From Escherichia coli (lineage in GTDB: Bacteria > Pseudomonadota > Gammaproteobacteria > Enterobacterales > Enterobacteriaceae): a stretch of 64,000 nt of DNA. Shown here in pieces: positions 9,262 through 19,040 of the stretch (position 1 is the first letter of the stretch; each line of letters starts with the position of its first letter). The position numbers and the translations under genes were made by a program. The stretch lies in assembly GCF_003991155.1 (NCBI RefSeq), contig NZ_CP031294.1. One strand, written 5' to 3'. The notes beneath the pieces are model-generated. The model had not been told where the DNA came from, did not search any database, and saw nothing but the letters and a program-made list of their open reading frames with translations.

Positions 9262-12200
9262 TCATTTGCTAATAGTCTCCGCTACCTCTGCCAGAATTGC
9301 TTCCAGCTTTTCGCCTTCCTCTGGGCGAAAGTACAAAATATTCGGGTTAAATCCGTAGAAAACAGTCACATCCAGCTCCGGCAGATACTCTTTGCGTCCA
9401 ACCAGGTCGGATGGTTTGATCTTGTTGTTGAAGAGCGACGTTGCCCGGCTGCCACACGTCAGCACATAGGTCGGACGCACCAGATTGATCTCTTCACGCA
9501 TAAAGTCGGTGAACTGGCCGATCTCGTCTTTGGTGTAGTCTTTTTCTTTGTCTTTAACCTTCTTGCAAACGCCTGTGACATAGAGATCGCCCATGCGTAA
9601 ATCTCCAGCCGTCAATAGCTTGGCCTTAAAATCGTCGTATCCGTTCTCCATAAAGTAACCGGTTCGAGCATCATTGCCGTTCGCATTGTCCAGAATGATC
9701 ATGATTTTCGGCTTAATACCAATGCTGGGGCGGATTAGTTCATCACCTAAGCCCATTTCAGCCGCCATCCGTGTCATGAGCACGTTAATCTCAGCCGAAC
9801 GTTTGGGGTTCATCTCAAACGGACGAGAGGCTTTAACTGCATCTATGACAAGGTTTCCCATCAATTCAGCCTGGTCGCGGAGGCGCTCTGGATCAGTTGC
9901 TGGCAGACTACCTGGCTCGATGGATGCAAACGCCCCTACTTTTTGCAGCGATTCGCGCACTCGACTATTACAGGCACGTTTCTCGACAGCTTCTTCGAAT
10001 TGCGCAAGTGACTCGAATTTGCCGCCAACCTTTTCTCGCGCTCTCATGATGGCCTGGCAGCCATTCTCAGAACACCCCTTCACAGCAGAGAAGGGCGCAT
10101 ACAGCACCTGGCTGCCATCTTCAAGCGTGCGGATCTCGATTCGGTTAGATGACACGTTAACGTCTGGTGGCAATACGCGAATACCATAGGTCAGCGCATC
10201 TTTAACCAGCCCCTGGTGTTTATCTTCGCCAAGAATAGTGAGAGCAGCAGCGAAAAACTCTGCGGGATAATGAGTTTTCAACCACATAGATTGATAACTG
10301 ATTAAGGAGTAAGCAACAGAGTGTGATTTGTTGAACTGGTAGGCACCATTCTTTTCGAATGCGGTCCAGATCTCCTTCGCTTTCATCTCTGATAGCCCTG
10401 GATGTGACGCTGTAACGCGTACTGCGTTTATAGGTAGTTTTGCACCGAACTCAAGTGCCTCTTCGACAGTTTTCAGAGTTCCGTCTTCGCATTTAAAATG
10501 TTCCGCACGGTGAATGCGCTGTGTAGTGCCATCTTCCAGCTCAACGTCGATCCAGCCAGCTTGAGCCTGAACGATGAACTTCTCACCCATGCTCTTCATT
10601 TTCTCCATGTCTTTTTTGCCGATCGCTTTACGAACGCCGTCAGCTTCAGCCATTGTGAAGCCGGCAAGCAATCGAGTCGCGTTCATCGTCTGTTCCTGAT
10701 AGAGAATCACGCCATTTGTTTCTGCGGTAAGTTCATCAAGAACGGGGTGTAATGATTCCGGCGTCATAAAGCCTTTGGCGACAGAAACATAATCATCCAA
10801 CATGCCTGACTGAATTGGCCCCGGCCGGAAGAGCGCAGTCGTAGCAACGACCGTTTTAAAGCTCATTGGCTCAATTCCACCACCTAAATCTTTAAGCAGC
10901 TTGCGCATTGGGCCTGATTCAAGCTGGAAAACACCTTGAGTGTACCCAGCAGCAAAACCATCCAGCACCTTGCGATCTTCAAGAGAAATGGCATCAAGAT
11001 TGATATCCTCACCTGTGTTCTCTTTAATGTAGCGTTTTGCACTATCGAGCAAATCGAGAGTCGCCAGGCCAAGTACGTCCAGCTTAATTAGGCCCATAGC
11101 CTCGCAGTAACGCTTGTCAAATGCGATACAACGCGCGTCACCACGTCGTTCAACCGGTGTTCGTTCTGTCAGAGGAACACCTGCTACGATCATCCCTGCC
11201 GCATGTCTACCATAGCCACGCATAAGGCTTTGTAACTTGCAGGCTGCATTGAATGCATCAGGATATTTTGTCGCGTATTTGTCGAGGCTTGCCAGTTGTT
11301 CGCGCAGCTCTTCCAATGGAAGGCTATCATCCTCGACGTTCTTCAGTTCTTTTGATACCGCCATATCTGCGGACTCCACACCATAAATACGAGCGGTGTC
11401 ACGTAGTGCAGAGGCCGCGCCCAGGTAGGTGAAGTTCGGAATGCCTGCAACGTAATCTTCGCCGTAGCGTTCATTCAGATACTCGATCACCTCATGGCGA
11501 CGTGCCTGGCTGAAGTCCAAGTCCGCATCTGGCAAGTCGAGACGCTCAGGGTTGATGAAACGTTCAAACAGAAGACCGTGACGGATAGGGTCGACGTTGG
11601 TTATGCCTATGCACCATGCCACCAAAGAGCCAGCGGAGGAACCACGACCAGGCCCGACAGGAATGCCAGTTTCACGGCTGTGATTCATCAGATCGCGTAC
11701 CATCAGGAAGTAACCACAAAATCCCAGGCGAGTAAGCGTGTCCATTTCGTACTTAAGTCGCTCAACATAAACCCTGTTCTCAGAAGCCGGTGGTGTGTAG
11801 CCAAACTCTTTTGTGGTAAGACGTTTACGCAGCCCAGCAACGGCCAGTTTCATCAGCGTTGCAGGCTCGTCGTCTGCCATCTTTGGCAGTGCTGGTGGCA
11901 ATTCATGCCAGCGCCATGTGCAGGCATCGATAATGGTATCCTGCGTTGTTGAGGCCATTGCGGCTGTTACCGGCACATCCATGCGAACGGAGAAGGCTTT
12001 CAGCGCCTCAAGGAGATGGCGGCGACCATTGACGGCGTTATCTCGCTGGTGGGGGATACGCAGACGATGCGGCTGGTCGATTTTGATGTTGTTCGTAACC
12101 ATGTGCGCAATGTCTTTAATGTCTGCATCGTCGATCGATTCGTAATAAGCGGGATAGAACGCTACTGGCTCTATTTTCAGTGCGCTGGCGACTTTCATCG

Positions 12201-12780
12201 CCCGGACGTTAATCTGGTCGTAGAATGGGGTAGGGTGCGGATAAACCACACTATAGAAGTTGTTTTTTCCACCCGCTGTAATCAGTGAGCTTATGATTTT
12301 TGCAAAATCGTTGCGTTGGTACACGCTACCGATGTCGGCAGTGAGCAGGATGATGTTGCCTTTGGCATATGTAGAAACCAACTGTTCGAGCGAGAGACGC
12401 GGTACAAAGTAGAACTGTTCTCGTGTGTTGGCCGCCGTCATTAGTTCGCAGATGTCTCGATATCCCTGCTCATTTTTAATTAGAGCGGTAAAGGAGTAGT
12501 TCCGCCCACGCTCTAATGATTCCATACATCCCATAGACTCTTTAGCAAGTTTAGCCCGGTGCTCGTATGTGGGATCATCAACAATGTTTAGTTTCACACC
12601 ACAAATAACCGCCATGTCGTCACCAGCGGCACGTTGTAGTGGAATAACACTCGCAATATTCATGCTATCTGCCGAAATTACAGCGGTGTAGCCAGCTTCT
12701 CTGGCAATCTTCACCGCGTTTTCTGCTTTTAGAGCCGACTCCCCAAGAGAGAAGTCAGTTCGAACCATCAGAGCCTTCAT
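9262..12780 (-). CDS. dnaE: DNA polymerase III alpha-type replicative polymerase (DnaE family) with N-terminal PHP domain
   Basis: 1172 aa; PHP-like N-terminus and the conserved DnaE core segment GFCGYFLMVRDLMNHSRETGIPVGPGRGSSAGSLVAWCIGITNVDPIRHGLLFERFINPERLDLPDADLDF. Confidence 0.85.
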   Translation of the reverse strand: MKALMVRTDFSLGESALKAENAVKIAREAGYTAVISADSMNIASVIPLQRAAGDDMAVICGVKLNIVDDPTYEHRAKLAKESMGCMESLERGRNYSFTALIKNEQGYRDICELMTAANTREQFYFVPRLSLEQLVSTYAKGNIILLTADIGSVYQRNDFAKIISSLITAGGKNNFYSVVYPHPTPFYDQINVRAMKVASALKIEPVAFYPAYYESIDDADIKDIAHMVTNNIKIDQPHRLRIPHQRDNAVNGRRHLLEALKAFSVRMDVPVTAAMASTTQDTIIDACTWRWHELPPALPKMADDEPATLMKLAVAGLRKRLTTKEFGYTPPASENRVYVERLKYEMDTLTRLGFCGYFLMVRDLMNHSRETGIPVGPGRGSSAGSLVAWCIGITNVDPIRHGLLFERFINPERLDLPDADLDFSQARRHEVIEYLNERYGEDYVAGIPNFTYLGAASALRDTARIYGVESADMAVSKELKNVEDDSLPLEELREQLASLDKYATKYPDAFNAACKLQSLMRGYGRHAAGMIVAGVPLTERTPVERRGDARCIAFDKRYCEAMGLIKLDVLGLATLDLLDSAKRYIKENTGEDINLDAISLEDRKVLDGFAAGYTQGVFQLESGPMRKLLKDLGGGIEPMSFKTVVATTALFRPGPIQSGMLDDYVSVAKGFMTPESLHPVLDELTAETNGVILYQEQTMNATRLLAGFTMAEADGVRKAIGKKDMEKMKSMGEKFIVQAQAGWIDVELEDGTTQRIHRAEHFKCEDGTLKTVEEALEFGAKLPINAVRVTASHPGLSEMKAKEIWTAFEKNGAYQFNKSHSVAYSLISYQSMWLKTHYPAEFFAAALTILGEDKHQGLVKDALTYGIRVLPPDVNVSSNRIEIRTLEDGSQVLYAPFSAVKGCSENGCQAIMRAREKVGGKFESLAQFEEAVEKRACNSRVRESLQKVGAFASIEPGSLPATDPERLRDQAELMGNLVIDAVKASRPFEMNPKRSAEINVLMTRMAAEMGLGDELIRPSIGIKPKIMIILDNANGNDARTGYFMENGYDDFKAKLLTAGDLRMGDLYVTGVCKKVKDKEKDYTKDEIGQFTDFMREEINLVRPTYVLTCGSRATSLFNNKIKPSDLVGRKEYLPELDVTVFYGFNPNILYFRPEEGEKLEAILAEVAETISK

Positions 12781-14291: not shown

Positions 14292-16400
14292 TCACTTCAA
14301 AATGATACGAGATAGTTCAGTAACTACAGATGAACCAAGACTATCAACGCTCGTTACCAGGGCATGGTTTGCGTAAAATCTCTCCGGTGCGTCAGTCATG
14401 ATGCCAATTGCCATCAAATCAATGTCAGTCTGCGTTTCAATTTGCTTCGCAACCGAACGCAAATGAGCGTCAAAACCTCTCCCAACAGCCCACGGCGCGC
14501 CATCGCTTAGAACAAGCATGATCTTCTTGTCCTCCATGCGACCAGAAAATAACGATGCAAGGCTGGCTATGCTTTCACCATCCACGTTATTAAGAAGTGG
14601 GAATGTGTAGCCTACGCACCCCATACGTGAGCGAACTTCGCGAGAATTGGCCTTTTCATTCCAATTTTTGATGATAGGTAGCATTAAAGATTCAAAGCGA
14701 GAGAACTCATACTTGATTGCCTTAAGCTCTCCTGCTGCCATATGACTACCAAATGTAGTGAAGCCGGTGATAATGTTGGGAACATTTATTCGATCAAGGG
14801 CATCGGCGATGGTATATGCACTTGCAAGAGCCAATTGTATCGTTATACCACTCATTGAACCTGATAAATCAATCACTTGTTGAACACAGGCGTTAACGGC
14901 TTTAGATTCTTCTTTTTTACGAAACACGCGATCATCATTCATTGCTAATCTGTAGATACTAGAACCATGAATGCGCCCCCGACGCTGGCCCGGTATAAAC
15001 TGAACTCTGTTTCTGCTTGCTATTGCTCGCTCCAGGTCTTTTGCCAGCGTCGACGAAACACCTGACGAAAGATGCTTTTCAATATATTTGTCGAAGAGCT
15101 GGTTGCCTTCAGGAACGATGCGATAGCGGCTGATTGGATATCCTCCTAAATCAATATCGGAGAATGTTTTAATAAGCCGTTTGATATGGGCTTCTGCCTG
15201 ATCAATCGAGCCGATGAAGTCGTATGAGCGATTGTATGGCCTGTATTCGCTTTTCGAGCTTTCTGTTAACTCGCTTTTAATCGTTTCGGATAGAGCATCT
15301 TCTGTCATACCTCCGACTTCATCTTCTATGCTATCCAGCTCCTCTAAAGCCTCTTCCAGACTCATTTTTGACGGAGTTGGAATATCTGAAGAGCCGTCTT
15401 CTGTCGTTTTTCTTTTTTCGTGGTCAGCGGTTAATGATTCTGACGCCGCGTTATCAGAAGCATCAGAATCTGATACCTCTTTATCATTTTCTGTATCATC
15501 GAATATTGTTTCTGATGATTCAGAATTATCTGAATCATCACTGTCGTTATTATCATGTTTGTGCTTACTGTGTGGTTCTGATTTGATAGATTTGTGATTA
15601 TCTAACATTGAGGGTGTCTCATGATCTTCGTTATCTTCATTGTTTTCTCTAGAGGCATCCGTCTGGTCAGCGTCTGAAGGATCGGAAGTTTTTCCCGGAG
15701 CTGACTCCTTACCTTTGCTTTCACTTTCAGTGTCTTTGAGGATCTTAGCTATGGTCGCAGCCACCTTTACACAATCATCGGTGCAAGACATGTTACGCAC
15801 GGCCACATCGATACCATGTTCTTTTAATAATGAAATTGGTTTCTCAATGACAGGCCAATATTCATCCATGAAATCTACGAACGGTGCTTGGCCATCCCAG
15901 GCTCTTACAACCGGACAGAGAAAGAAGTTTAGAAAAAGCGCACGCTGATCTTTGCCACAATAAGCAATAGCCTCTGAAGCCTTTGGTTTAAAGACTTTTT
16001 CGATTATAAGGCGCTGAGTTGCCATCAGATTACGTCTTGTTCCGTTAAAGACCTGACCCATTTTTCGCTCGATGAACACGTCTTCTAAGGCATTCCATAG
16101 CGACCAGGAAGGAACGCGTCCTTTTTCTCTCATTTTGTTGGACACACGAATATCGGTAAACAAAATGTGAGCAACCTCATGATCGAGAAATCCGCGCACA
16201 GCATTCATCAATGCCGGTGTTGCGTTATCCGGGATTGATGGGATGTTTACGAGAATTGGCTCTCCATCATCGTTATAGCGTACATAAGCGTCGTCCCCTC
16301 GTTCTGCAACAGGGATGTTTTTACCTGAAAGGAGAGCGACTACTCGTTTTACACTGTCACGGAAGTCCTGAACCTCTTTGATGGAACGTTTTTTAGACAT
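14292..16400 (-). CDS. CobT-like protein with C-terminal von Willebrand factor A domain and long acidic low-complexity insert
   Basis: 702 aa; ~150-aa Asp/Glu/Ser-rich central segment; C-terminal VWA-like region (DLSGSMSG resembling a MIDAS DxSxS motif); adjacent to the AAA+ partner. Confidence 0.6.
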   Translation of the reverse strand: MSKKRSIKEVQDFRDSVKRVVALLSGKNIPVAERGDDAYVRYNDDGEPILVNIPSIPDNATPALMNAVRGFLDHEVAHILFTDIRVSNKMREKGRVPSWSLWNALEDVFIERKMGQVFNGTRRNLMATQRLIIEKVFKPKASEAIAYCGKDQRALFLNFFLCPVVRAWDGQAPFVDFMDEYWPVIEKPISLLKEHGIDVAVRNMSCTDDCVKVAATIAKILKDTESESKGKESAPGKTSDPSDADQTDASRENNEDNEDHETPSMLDNHKSIKSEPHSKHKHDNNDSDDSDNSESSETIFDDTENDKEVSDSDASDNAASESLTADHEKRKTTEDGSSDIPTPSKMSLEEALEELDSIEDEVGGMTEDALSETIKSELTESSKSEYRPYNRSYDFIGSIDQAEAHIKRLIKTFSDIDLGGYPISRYRIVPEGNQLFDKYIEKHLSSGVSSTLAKDLERAIASRNRVQFIPGQRRGRIHGSSIYRLAMNDDRVFRKKEESKAVNACVQQVIDLSGSMSGITIQLALASAYTIADALDRINVPNIITGFTTFGSHMAAGELKAIKYEFSRFESLMLPIIKNWNEKANSREVRSRMGCVGYTFPLLNNVDGESIASLASLFSGRMEDKKIMLVLSDGAPWAVGRGFDAHLRSVAKQIETQTDIDLMAIGIMTDAPERFYANHALVTSVDSLGSSVVTELSRIILK

Positions 16401-16498
16401 GGCTAATCCTTTGTTATGAAAACAAATTATTTACTAGTGTGTTTAATGTAGCACTGCGCGAACAGGGAACTAAGCCATTCGCGCAGGGAGAAGAGGGG

Positions 16499-16711
16499 TT
16501 AACAGATTCTGACGGCTAAAGACCCGGAGCCGGTATTGAGAAGCGTGAAGCGTTTGTTGTTAAGTTCGAATATAAAGCCAGTTGTGTCATTCACACCAAC
16601 CTGAATCTGCTCATTCGGTAGATCGGTGAGGATGTCAGCTACACACTCAACAGCTAATTTTTGTACGTGTCCGATCTCAAGAGCGATTAGGCTGGAAATA
16701 GTGGTGTTCAT
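16499..16711 (-). CDS. Hypothetical protein
   Basis: 70-aa ORF; weak support. Confidence 0.3.
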   Translation of the reverse strand: MNTTISSLIALEIGHVQKLAVECVADILTDLPNEQIQVGVNDTTGFIFELNNKRFTLLNTGSGSLAVRIC

Positions 16712-16888
16712 TCAATCAATCCATTCTAACTTATACTATGGTAAGGAATACTACTAAAATTTGTATCAATACTGAATACATTCATATCATATGCAAGTTA
16801 CTTTTCTTACCTATTTTGGGCTAATTTTTCTCCGTGCAATGGCCTTTAACCGGTCTTTTAAGTGCCTATCGAAAAAAATGATAATAGC

Positions 16889-16916
16889 TTTACAACCCTA
16901 ACCTTTGATGTAATAT
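16889..16916 (+). promoter_or_regulatory. Candidate sigma70-type promoter for the HTH regulator gene
   Basis: TTTACA, 16-nt spacer, TAATAT, about 45 nt upstream of the ATG at 16963. Confidence 0.4.
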
Positions 16917-16962
16917 CGGTAAGCACTTACCAGAGAGAATTGAACGCGCAAAGGTTGTAACC

Positions 16963-17349
16963 ATGTCTGATAACAAGATTGAATTTATAGAAAGTCGCTA
17001 CGCTGCTTTTATCGCAGGGTTGATTGAATCCTCACCTATGAGCCAGGCCCAGATAGCCAAAACAATTGGGTATAAAAACGCCAACAACCTTTCTTTAATT
17101 AAAAGCGGCAAAATTCCTTTGCCTATCGATAAGGTTCGTCCGCTGGCGCTGGCACTGGGCATTGAGCCAAGTCGTCTTATGATGATGGTGCTGGAAGAAC
17201 GCCAACCCGAACTCGCAGCATTTTTATACAAAGAAGGCACTGCTCCTCTTAACGAGGACGAAAAACAGGTTCTTGCTGCATATAACGAGCGATTCGGTAA
17301 AGAGAAAGGCGCATCACAAAAGGTTGTTGAGGCCATAAAGTCTCTATGA
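16963..17349 (+). CDS. HTH transcriptional regulator (XRE/Cro-like)
   Basis: Helix-turn-helix signature SQAQIAKTIGYKNANNLSLIKSGK; 128 aa; convergent with the recombinase gene. Confidence 0.6.
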   Translation: MSDNKIEFIESRYAAFIAGLIESSPMSQAQIAKTIGYKNANNLSLIKSGKIPLPIDKVRPLALALGIEPSRLMMMVLEERQPELAAFLYKEGTAPLNEDEKQVLAAYNERFGKEKGASQKVVEAIKSL

Positions 17350-18447
17350 AAAATTTACACGAATAAGCTCTGTTGATAGACGATCTCCCTTAAATTTGTG
17401 GTCAATTTCGTCTAAATCCGGTTGCTCTACGATTGATGCGATGTACGTCGAGAAACTTTCTAAGGCGTCTCGCATCTCGTCCATATAATCGTGCCGGTCG
17501 TAGACCCGATCTATCCCCTCAAGACTGTGGTTCATGATTTTACGTGATACCTCCTGGCTTATGCCTAATGCTGGGAAGTAACTACGCGCAGTACGGCGCA
17601 AATCTCGGGGTGTAAATGGCTCAAGCTCCATCAGTTCTGGTCGTTCCAGAATACGACGTAATGCCTGGGCTATTGCCACTTTAGACATAGGAAGGTCTTT
17701 CCCGATTTTTTTATTCGAAGGCACGAGCCACTGGCTGTCTTTACCATATTCGAACAACTCTTCAATACAAGTGCGCATTAATGAGCTTAAAGGCAGAGAA
17801 TGCTCACGGGCAGATTTGTTCCTCTTGCCTTGATTCCAAACCCCACGCTTAAGATTGAACTCACTTTTTTTAGCCCGCAGTACTTCGTCAGGTCGTCTTG
17901 CGGATACAAGACATAGCCTGGCCGCCCATTTTGTACCAGCGCACACATTGAAGTAGTCCCATATATTCCAGAACACCCATACCTCTGCGTCGGTCAGCTT
18001 CCGCTCGCGAGGTGTGGGCTTTGCGCCACCGGCAACTTTGTTAAGTGACATATCGTTTAACGGTGACACGTCTATCATCCCCTGGAAGGCGCACCAGCTA
18101 AGGAACTGCTTCATCAGAGAGAAAACGCGGCGGCCCATAACAATTTTGCCATCCAGTATTAGTGGGTTGACCAGTTGGTTCACCATGAACCTATTAATGT
18201 CACTTACTTTTACATCGGCAATGTGCGGCAAAACATGTATCAAAATACAATGAACAGCGATCTCTGGCCGACGTCTGGTTATCAGCAGAGATAAGCGAGT
18301 GAATAACATGAATGCGTCCGAGAATCTCATGTCATTGCTGACCTGGGAGATCATAACGGCCTGCATTTGAGATGCTCTTTCGAGATACTCTATCGCCTCT
18401 TTTGAGGTGTTCTCCGCAGCGCGTGCTCTGTCAAAGCTATTTTTCAT
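17344..18447 (-). CDS. Tyrosine site-specific recombinase (integrase/resolvase family)
   Basis: Catalytic-domain boxes: ARLCLVSARRPDEV (box I Arg), HSLPL, FTPRDLRRTARS, and HSLEGIDRVYDRHDY with the terminal Tyr. Confidence 0.7.
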   Translation of the reverse strand: MKNSFDRARAAENTSKEAIEYLERASQMQAVMISQVSNDMRFSDAFMLFTRLSLLITRRRPEIAVHCILIHVLPHIADVKVSDINRFMVNQLVNPLILDGKIVMGRRVFSLMKQFLSWCAFQGMIDVSPLNDMSLNKVAGGAKPTPRERKLTDAEVWVFWNIWDYFNVCAGTKWAARLCLVSARRPDEVLRAKKSEFNLKRGVWNQGKRNKSAREHSLPLSSLMRTCIEELFEYGKDSQWLVPSNKKIGKDLPMSKVAIAQALRRILERPELMELEPFTPRDLRRTARSYFPALGISQEVSRKIMNHSLEGIDRVYDRHDYMDEMRDALESFSTYIASIVEQPDLDEIDHKFKGDRLSTELIRVNFS

Positions 18448-18620
18448 ATGACAATCACCGAGTTACGCCGATGCACTGTATAAGTAAACAGTATATTAGG
18501 CATAGATTCTTATAGGATCAAGAGTAAAAGTAACTCATTTTCAGCAATGATTCCATACATAGTAGGTATGGAATCATTTAAGGGAGGAATTTAAATTCTG
18601 AGGCGTTATTAATATGATTG

Positions 18621-19031
18621 TTAAGGGTTAGTGAGAGCTTGAAATGCGGCCGCGTAGGTAGCGATATCGACCATAATTTTTGGATCTTTCGCGTACTGAT
18701 GTGCGTTGTTAGGGAAGATTGCCAATAGGCTATACACATCTTGGAAATGTGCATGTTGACTGTAAACGAGTGCACGGTCGCTTGTGCAATTGAATCTGCT
18801 GCGGCTGCTGGTTCGTTCTTGCTTCGTGAACAAGAGATGAACGTGATAAACGCGGGAGGACACGATAGCACCAGGAGCCGTATACGGGCCATCTTTGCCG
18901 AATATGGCTGGGTACATGCCTTGTTTAAACGACTTGAAATCGTTGAGTAACGTAATCTCTAAGTCAGGCTTTATATCGAAGGTCGGCTTTAAAAATTGGG
19001 CGTAACTATCACTGTTCCATGTGATCTTCAT
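18621..19031 (-). CDS. YafO-like toxin domain protein (putative type II toxin)
   Basis: 136 aa; segments FGKDGPY, VYHVHL and LLAIFPNNAHQYAKDPKI resemble my recollection of E. coli YafO; unverified. Confidence 0.4.
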   Translation of the reverse strand: MKITWNSDSYAQFLKPTFDIKPDLEITLLNDFKSFKQGMYPAIFGKDGPYTAPGAIVSSRVYHVHLLFTKQERTSSRSRFNCTSDRALVYSQHAHFQDVYSLLAIFPNNAHQYAKDPKIMVDIATYAAAFQALTNP

Positions 19032-19040
19032 CGTTCAACC

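Follow-up and report, generated by a model that had tools for sequence, protein, structure and literature searches.

Tyrosine recombinases of the lox/FRT/dif type act on simple core sites, in which inverted arms of about 11-14 bp flank a central, asymmetric spacer of 6-8 bp that is fixed in length and variable in sequence. Such sites lie alongside the gene for a cognate recombinase with an intact active site, their arms co-vary with the divergence of that recombinase and, in the case of Cre/loxP, they serve to resolve multimers of P1. Here we analyse a 64,000-nucleotide stretch of Escherichia coli contig NZ_CP031294.1 (the window), in which a 33-bp palindrome of this geometry lies upstream of a tyrosine recombinase gene and three single copies of its arm lie elsewhere. 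Comparative sequence evidence suggests that the palindrome is quite probably the lox-like core site of this recombinase, serving multimer resolution, and that the single copies are probably extra half-sites.

Several described systems share part of this arrangement. A 7-bp overlap is typical of the lambda/P4-type integrases, and the Rci/sfx shufflon of R64 uses sites with a 7-bp spacer and one conserved arm. To our knowledge, dispersed half-sites are not a feature of Cre/loxP. The stoperators of L5 gp71 and the operators of P1 C1 are asymmetric single sites of 13-17 bp, some of them paired, that lie in or between the genes of temperate phages; they number 10-30, are bound by helix-turn-helix (HTH) repressors and, in L5, share one orientation with respect to transcription. 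Karaboja et al. are said to have described, in 2021, half-sites for XerD (XDS) in the Bacillus subtilis terminus, arm-like dispersed sites with a task other than recombination, linked to the unloading of SMC (structural maintenance of chromosomes). In the Bacillus prophage SPbeta, the master repressor MrpR is a protein of tyrosine-recombinase fold that has lost most catalytic residues and whose 15-bp motif, SPBRE, is found at several places of the prophage genome (PMC10516654).

The window represents an E. coli SSU5-like phage-plasmid. Its region 16400-24000 is 100% identical, at the same coordinates, to the E. coli plasmid NZ_OW849379.1 (110,667 bp, IncFIB, non-mobilizable), and 98% identical to Cyrano of E. 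coli LF82, an SSU5-like siphovirus with a plasmid lifestyle.

The palindrome and its recombinase

The 13-mer GTATGGAATCATT occurs exactly five times, at 12515-12527 (minus strand), 18546-18558 (minus), 18566-18578 (plus), 22001-22013 (plus) and 23013-23025 (plus). The full 110,667-bp plasmid holds the same five exact copies and none with one mismatch. Allowing up to two mismatches, seven matches were obtained against 2.03 +/- 1.33 in shuffled sequences, with none of 100 shuffles reaching seven, and by our own arithmetic about 0.002 exact 13-mers would be expected in 128 kb of sequence. Two of the copies make up the palindrome AATGATTCCATAC-ATAGTAG-GTATGGAATCATT at 18546-18578, a 13-7-13 arrangement. 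The left arm (18546-18558), which reads AATGATTCCATAC on the plus strand and is an exact minus-strand copy of the motif, is a predicted site for one recombinase protomer; the asymmetric 7-bp spacer (18559-18565) is the predicted region of strand exchange; and the outer edge of the right arm (18566-18578, plus) coincides with the sharp border of a variable cassette region. The recombinase ATG (18447, minus) lies 98 bp downstream of the palindrome, and the stop codon of a yafO-like gene (18621) lies 42 bp away on the other side.

A sequence-only reading of the window had recognised this inverted repeat with its 13-bp arms, placing it one base off at 18547-18579. It also located two of the singles correctly, as ATGTATGGAATCATTT at 21999-22014 and 23011-23026, and missed the fifth copy, inside the coding sequence of dnaE (12515). 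Its statement that the singles lie upstream of minus-strand genes is roughly right: site 22001 is found about 190 bp upstream of a minus-strand transfer RNA (tRNA) cluster, and site 23013 shares bases with the ATGA where one small gene of the minus strand stops and another starts.

The distribution of the palindrome follows that of the recombinase. Across approximately 150 locus entries, compiled from overlapping sets with duplicates and comprising recombinase homologues with a complete N-terminus, the palindrome was detected 43-99 bp upstream of every start codon (44-100% recombinase identity), and no such homologue among the loci examined lacks it. A search of viral contigs that demanded exact arms returned 73 loci with nine different 7-bp spacers and widely different flanks, each presenting a recombinase homologue (59-100% identity) directly beside the palindrome. 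In a scan of one genome per bacterial species, exact arms were identified in three Chimaeribacter species, beside a 57%-identical recombinase and in the neighbourhood of TreZ, LacI-type, OYE and UvsE genes. These Chimaeribacter loci have no SSU5 backbone, no single copies and, by tblastn, no adjacent homologue of the HTH regulator that neighbours the recombinase in the window. More distant homologues (44-50% identity), drawn from a collection of 5.8 billion proteins, were found on a 508-kb Pantoea vagans replicon, a 723-kb Rahnella victoriana replicon and an Erwinia contig, as well as in Xenorhabdus, Providencia and Photorhabdus phage-plasmids, their palindromes being located 56-104 bp ahead of the start codon; called-gene lists for the Pantoea, Rahnella and Erwinia loci contain no convergent neighbouring HTH gene.

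Arm sequence changes along with the recombinase. The arms are AATGATTCCATAC/GTATGGAATCATT throughout the range of 57-100% identity, take the 12-bp form TTGATTCCATAC at 56%, and read TGACTCCAGAC/GTCTGGAGTCA at 44-50%, where the 13-7-13 layout is kept. The shift from GTATGGAATCA to GTCTGGAGTCA, below about 50% identity, alters positions 3 and 8 and is mirrored in both arms, and the Photorhabdus arms present an intermediate form. Both arm types occur within the Yersiniaceae, so host taxonomy is not the explanation and it is the recombinase lineage that predicts the arms. The comparison thus points to two natural specificity classes, differing at two arm positions. In relatives with unchanged arms, the spacer takes at least 13 different A/T-rich sequences and is always 7 bp long. 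Most Klebsiella-type loci, and Erwinia as well, have the spacer ctattaa, whereas the relative L127 and Rahnella have it in the opposite orientation with respect to the recombinase gene, as ttaatag; the same spacer also recurs in very distant lineages. Since it occurs in both orientations and recurs in this manner, the spacer flips and is under some constraint (consensus about TTAATAG). The locus therefore combines perfect 13-bp inverted arms, an asymmetric 7-bp spacer of fixed length and variable sequence, a neighbouring recombinase with an intact predicted active site, and arms that co-vary with recombinase divergence, as in simple core sites of the lox/FRT/dif type.

The recombinase gene (17344-18447, minus, ATG at 18447) encodes a protein of 367 amino acids annotated as 'site-specific integrase'. 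Pfam searches identified only a core-binding domain (PF22022) and a catalytic domain (PF00589), with no N-terminal arm-binding domain; the P4-type arm-binding domain PF13356 was detected only in distant homologues, at 26-34% identity. Across 23 homologues, with identities down to 43%, residues R184/R185, K211, R281/R284 and Y316 never vary, and H307 is conserved in at least 90%. The nearest folds to its AlphaFold model (predicted local distance difference test, pLDDT, of 82) are Tn1549 Int and lambda Int, over the core-binding plus catalytic domains. Integron integrases follow at rank 25, MrpR at rank 28 and Cre at rank 33 (E = 0.025, template modelling, TM, score of about 0.45), and phmmer returned no PDB match at E <= 0.01. 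NCBIfam scans, which covered two Chimaeribacter homologues rather than the window protein, matched only a CP4-57-type integrase domain model, weakly. These relationships would be best explained if the recombinase family were a plasmid-borne offshoot of P4/lambda-type integrases that has lost its arm-binding domain.

The region encompassing the recombinase and the palindrome is present in 247 of 5,426 complete E. coli genomes (4.6%), at 249 places, all of them on plasmids and none chromosomal. Because the arms track the recombinase lineage and all copies are plasmid-borne, the best interpretation of the palindrome is as a core site of the recombinase itself, and its plasmid-only life makes the resolution of plasmid or prophage multimers the most likely job. 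A simple site, an active-looking recombinase that lacks an arm-binding domain, and a plasmid location, with both phage-plasmids and large plasmids as carriers, would together be, by analogy, the design of a multimer-resolution system like Cre/loxP. Under this model, two recombinase protomers would bind the two 13-bp arms and exchange strands across the 7-bp spacer. Multimers of the plasmid or prophage would be resolved in this way, much as those of P1 are by Cre/loxP, and occupancy of a site just ahead of the LexA-controlled recombinase promoter could additionally provide autoregulation. Physical binding, resolution activity and the role of the singles are what we infer here from sequence comparison.

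In 107 of 125 locus comparisons, similarity followed outwards from the recombinase breaks off at 18578-18580, and the same border is observed in most E. coli plasmids among the matches listed. Different cassettes lie beyond it. In the window, the cassette adjoining the right arm (18579-19772, minus) encodes a YafO-like toxin and a 202-amino-acid partner, and most relatives carry genes other than this pair. The Cyrano gene at the cassette position (CYRAN_43) stands 723-fold above the prophage background in the lysogen. The first 25 bp past the right arm are diverged yet related in all relatives, presenting a T-run followed by GAAWTCTG. This element lies 8-12 nucleotides past the arm (within 18579-18605 here) and on the minus strand resembles a -10 hexamer (CAGAAT, TAAAAT or TAGATT), possibly that of a second promoter from which transcription would run through the palindrome. 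The far end of the cassette has no second motif site in the full plasmid. The border fits a recombination hot spot and, equally, the edge of strong selection on the arms. Integron-like cassette capture was considered and set aside, given that no motif copy is found elsewhere in the plasmid and that the right flank is related in all relatives.

The remaining genes of the region frame this module. Two CobT/AAA genes and a 70-codon gene lie between dnaE (9262-12780, minus) and the Xre-type HTH regulator gene (16963-17349, plus), which converges on the recombinase gene. On the other side, a glutaredoxin gene is listed between the YafO-like toxin pair and four tRNA genes (21251-21808, minus), which are followed by several small genes and an ATP-dependent ligase gene. 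The plasmids hosting the recombinase-palindrome region mostly measure 105-120 kb, and a few of 188-240 kb may be co-integrates.

Single copies of the arm

The single copies lie at defined loci and appear to be maintained there. The copy in dnaE (12515-12527, minus) spans codons 85-89, the sense strand reading GTATGGAATCATT. Among 37 distinct dnaE 5' sequences (down to 72% identity to the consensus), the longest invariant run is TGTATGGAATCATT; the motif falls in a loop with variable amino acids on both sides, and every synonymous position in it is fixed. Both the motif and the CMESL peptide are absent in Xenorhabdus, Providencia and the relative L134, whose DnaE loop has another sequence. In the complete Klebsiella phage-plasmid pJN2-26, which shares about 75% identity over this region, the motif core is present at the same four loci and in the recombinase gene, and nowhere else, against 0.05 copies expected by chance.

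Site B (22001-22013, plus) is intergenic and lies beside a conserved hairpin. A conserved 14-bp stem (22015-22028 with 22065-22078) flanks it, the surrounding region (21930-22100, minus) folds better than shuffled sequences (z = -3.1), and a weak match (E = 0.05) to transfer-messenger RNA (tmRNA) was returned by Rfam at 22409-22511 (minus). The stem and the tmRNA-like match could belong to an uncharacterised structured RNA upstream of the tRNA cluster.

Site A (23013-23025, plus) sits at the junction of a 71-codon gene (23021-23236) and a 50-codon gene (22872-23024). Its 11-nucleotide core is present in 27 of 28 distinct contexts despite diverged flanks, and it is absent in L134, which has the genes. 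The 50-codon open reading frame (ORF), unannotated in the window (minus strand), encodes a membrane protein with a full-length match to PHROG 6302 (E = 8e-37). This ORF is annotated in Cyrano and SSU5, and its ATG lies inside site A; similar small genes of 59 and 96 codons are found nearby, and the 71-amino-acid protein encoded upstream is winged-helix-like. The reverse complement of the motif encodes MIPY, and a 'MIPYI' mini-ORF was rejected as an explanation of the motif, since only site A starts a real gene and the ORF at site B is not conserved.

No second arm accompanies any of the singles, and the 7 bp that adjoin them differ from the palindrome spacer and among themselves. Four of the five copies are immediately preceded by AT, and the three singles share GAT plus the 13-mer. 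Their orientation mirrors the palindrome, the left single corresponding to the left arm and the right singles to the right arm, an outcome with a random chance of 1 in 4. Among about 40 relatives, no rearrangement or inversion was found to end at a single. The singles are absent in L134, Xenorhabdus and Providencia, and in non-phage contexts. This distribution implies that they evolved in place, within one clade, which suggests a binding-site function and speaks against recombination scars. Degenerate full sites of the sfx type and scars were both rejected on the lack of a second arm, the differing spacers, the absence of inversions or deletions and the situation in L134.

To judge from their sequence conservation, the singles clearly appear to be under nucleotide-level selection, and they are probably extra half-sites for the recombinase. 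They would have arisen in one SSU5-like clade and been held there by selection at the DNA level. Recombinase monomers bound there could act at dnaE, and at the small-gene and tRNA clusters, as roadblocks or as architectural marks; the shared GAT would fit a need for higher monomer affinity, and the singles would be unlikely recombination partners. It is also possible, if rather doubtful, that an SOS-controlled recombinase with predicted intact catalysis doubles as a dispersed-site binder that gates lytic functions or organises the replicon. Monomers would then occupy half-sites in the gene for DNA polymerase III alpha, at a start-codon junction and in the leader of the tRNA cluster. Such binding, if true, would represent a counterpart of stoperators or XDS sites that is built on a recombinase.

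A further, degenerate copy, GTTTGGAATCAAG, lies inside the recombinase gene (17829-17841, minus) and is an exact 11-mer in Klebsiella and Yersinia-type relatives. This copy is not strictly conserved, since its first codon varies (GTA/GTT/ATA/TTA), and it is probably a by-product of the W-N-Q codons.

SSU5 lacks the 70-codon gene, the HTH gene, the recombinase, the palindrome, the cassettes, the glutaredoxin gene and three tRNAs, a block that corresponds to window positions 16400-21734, with the junction at SSU5 positions 15527-15692. No PLSDB plasmid matches at least 80% of the SSU5 cobT-tRNA junction in one piece, and SSU5 therefore looks like a lone deletion derivative; it may have lost repressor and recombinase by deletion. 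It keeps the dnaE copy and carries the only core substitution at site B (GTACGG), in a flank that is otherwise almost identical. This change is suggestive, as a single case, of relaxed or reversed selection after loss of the module. The notion that SSU5 demonstrates independence of the singles from the recombinase was dropped, given its appearance as a lone deletion derivative.

SOS control and rival explanations

A recombinase promoter is predicted at 18494-18522 (minus), with a -35 TTGATC (18522-18517), a 17-bp spacer and a -10 TAATAT (18499-18494). It was read by eye and falls below the threshold of a consensus scan, and for this reason it is itself an inference; the predicted elements are kept in Klebsiella-type relatives. 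A LexA (SOS) box, CTGTATAAGTAAACAG, adjoins the predicted -10 just downstream (18476-18491). A CTG-N10-CAG box between palindrome and ATG was detected in all homologues with at least 82% identity and in none at 60% or below. The only other strong LexA box in the plasmid, at 82156-82171, lies upstream of an S24-peptidase gene, and the 'integrase' hence appears to be one of two SOS-controlled genes. Induction of Cyrano by ciprofloxacin is 39-fold. With respect to the predicted recombinase start, the palindrome centre lies at about -75 in this clade; in the 57-60% clade, the palindrome abuts a -10-like TATGCT and its centre falls near -42, again relative to a predicted promoter. Given that the predicted LexA-controlled promoter lies downstream of the palindrome, an operator in the promoter would be at best an autoregulatory side role. 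Autoregulation by the recombinase is plausible.

Other features of this stretch touch on expression of the two convergent genes. A GATC (Dam) site (18517-18520) falls inside the predicted -35 TTGATC and is kept in Klebsiella-type relatives. The recombinase and HTH repressor-like genes overlap by 6 bp at their convergent ends (17344-17349). The consensus scan found no terminator between the 3' end of the recombinase gene and the start of the HTH gene, and one terminator-like site was observed inside the HTH gene (17123-17107, minus). SOS-induced transcription of the recombinase would run antisense into the repressor gene, a possible mechanism of induction.

Several observations weigh against the palindrome being a core site for multimer resolution with extra half-sites. 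Neither a second site nor the end point of a rearrangement, either of which would be proof of recombination at the palindrome, was observed, and the sharp border can be explained by selection on the arms alone. The compensatory changes in the arms would equally preserve an RNA or DNA hairpin. The LexA box points to expression that is induced by the SOS response instead of being constitutive. This would be unexpected of a maintenance resolvase and speaks against a purely housekeeping role. A palindrome near -75 does not overlap the core promoter, so that autoregulation is not obvious. Furthermore, the link between the singles and the recombinase rests on arm identity, because the clade with GTCTGGAGTCA arms has no singles.

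The sequence-only reading had proposed that the motif is the binding site of a dedicated regulator controlling the recombinase and a few other loci, and had named the adjacent HTH regulator as the protein to try. In the rival explanation built on this, a repressor dimer would bind the palindrome and monomers the singles, so as to control the recombinase and a few lytic genes. The family itself is borne out: its sites are selected, look like protein-type sites, link the upstream region of the recombinase to a few loci and are conserved at homologous places in relatives, where that reading had suggested looking. The proposed binder, in contrast, we judge very improbable. The palindrome is found in four sampled non-SSU5 contexts where no adjacent HTH gene was detected (Chimaeribacter by tblastn; Pantoea, Rahnella and Erwinia by called-gene lists), its arms co-vary with recombinase identity, and the divergent promoter region of the HTH gene (16712-16962) contains no copy with up to two mismatches. 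Moreover, 13-7-13 is the geometry of a tyrosine-recombinase core, unlike a typical one-turn HTH operator, and a centre-to-centre spacing of 20 bp is atypical for an Xre-type dimer. These points have to be set against the presence of the HTH gene beside the recombinase in all SSU5-like phage-plasmids examined, and against the conservation of its putative recognition helix (GYKNxNNLSLIKSGKIPLP) across variants of 50-100% identity, which means that divergence alone is no argument against the regulator. SSU5, which lacks the module, is also the only holder of a core mutation at site B, and P1 C1 and L5 gp71 offer general precedents for dispersed asymmetric operators.

A purely regulatory palindrome, operating on the recombinase without strand exchange while the true site, if any, lies elsewhere, is unlikely, even though it accommodates the constant position just upstream of the recombinase promoter (with the centre near -42 in the 57-60% clade), the lack of any recombination product at the site and the precedent of MrpR, which shows that recombinase-fold proteins can be pure regulators (PMC10516654). 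Catalytic residues are conserved family-wide here, unlike in MrpR, the 13-7-13 layout is that of crossover sites, the 10 kb around the locus yielded no alternative candidate in any context, and a plasmid-only distribution suits resolution. An RNA element, in which the palindrome would form a transcript hairpin and the singles would pair with it or among themselves, so as to govern translation or stability, seems decidedly improbable to us. The hairpin is stable (-18.1 kcal/mol, z = -4.6), symmetric arm changes keep its pairing and the site B region is structured (z = -3.1). The copy in the dnaE mRNA is complementary to the transcript copies of sites A and B; the dnaE site and site A share 20 inverted bases in most E. 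coli relatives, whose transcripts could thus pair over 20 nucleotides; site A covers a start codon; and the SSU5 change at site B still permits a G-U pair. Yet all 13 positions are fixed within each clade, beyond what mere pairing requires, and a 13-bp intramolecular stem would out-compete pairing in trans. The GAT conserved at the singles is not complementary to the palindrome context, Rfam gives no match apart from tRNAs, and in this clade the predicted recombinase transcript begins downstream of the palindrome and would therefore not include it, which also counts against such an element. Chance repeats or a recent functionless duplication have in their favour only the small copy number, and have practically no probability left: five exact 13-mers were found against the 0.002 expected, no shuffle attained the observed count with up to two mismatches, and the copies are kept at homologous places in genomes about 25% diverged, so that this explanation is already refuted. 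Among other candidates, a sigma-70 -35 or -10 reading of the motif was discarded by eye, its spacing to -10-like hexamers being inconsistent at the five copies. Resemblance to Ter/Tus, Fur, IHF and XerD-arm sites, judged by eye, was weak in all cases and was rejected, and proximity to a packaging site, as in P1, is not supported, the terminase gene lying about 45 kb away.

Comparison with known systems

On the sequence evidence, our verdict is a putative new recombinase/site pair with unusual dispersed half-sites. A literature search found the motif string in no paper, and in the SSU5 and phage-plasmid literature it found no such site described, nor any maintenance or switch circuitry at the site. 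The pairing would provide a target site for an 'integrase' that is widespread and uncharacterised and that, in E. coli, never integrates. SSU5-like phage-plasmids are common, published surveys report that phage-plasmids often carry resistance genes (PMC9600943), and a compact pair of recombinase and 33-bp site could become a tool for genome engineering. Two oddities stand out, namely the LexA control of a presumed resolvase that is convergent to a repressor gene, and half-sites that are invariant even at synonymous positions of dnaE.

Cre/loxP of P1, and likewise Flp/FRT, resemble the present locus in pairing a recombinase gene, on a plasmid prophage, with an adjacent simple palindrome whose arms measure 13 bp, and Cre/loxP further shares with it the lack of arm-type sites and the expected role in multimer resolution. 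In contrast, the spacer here measures 7 bp rather than 8, the promoter is LexA-controlled, and the recombinase has no detectable sequence relationship to Cre (phmmer, PDB), which appears only at rank 33 in the fold search. The lambda/P4-type integrases, with their C-O-C' core sites, provide the nearest folds and the weak similarity to CP4-57-type models. Unlike the lambda/P4 attP, the present system has no arm-binding domain, no chromosomal integration (0 of 249 places) and perfect 13-bp arms in place of weak core sites.

Integron IntI/attI offers a parallel in the LexA box at the recombinase promoter and in a variable cassette that starts exactly at the site. It differs in that no attC-like site was found here where the cassette ends distally, the palindrome is perfect and integron integrases rank only 25 by fold; no integron-integrase model was matched in the NCBIfam scans of the two Chimaeribacter homologues. 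The Rci/sfx sites resemble the singles; the spacers of the singles, however, differ, and no inversions were seen among the approximately 40 relatives.

Among systems with dispersed sites, MrpR/SPBRE differs in that the catalytic residues are invariant here, the singles number only three and the gene is LexA-repressed. The singles are likewise fewer than L5 stoperators, their probable binder is the recombinase, and, with the minus-strand genes as reference, the dnaE copy points the opposite way from sites A and B. XerD/XDS shares the combination of a full recombination site with dispersed one-arm sites, but it is chromosomal and linked to SMC, and nothing in the present locus suggests an involvement of SMC. 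Overall, loxP, FRT and dif-type sites are the closest to the palindrome in function, whereas the recombinase protein groups by fold with the lambda/Tn1549-type integrases.

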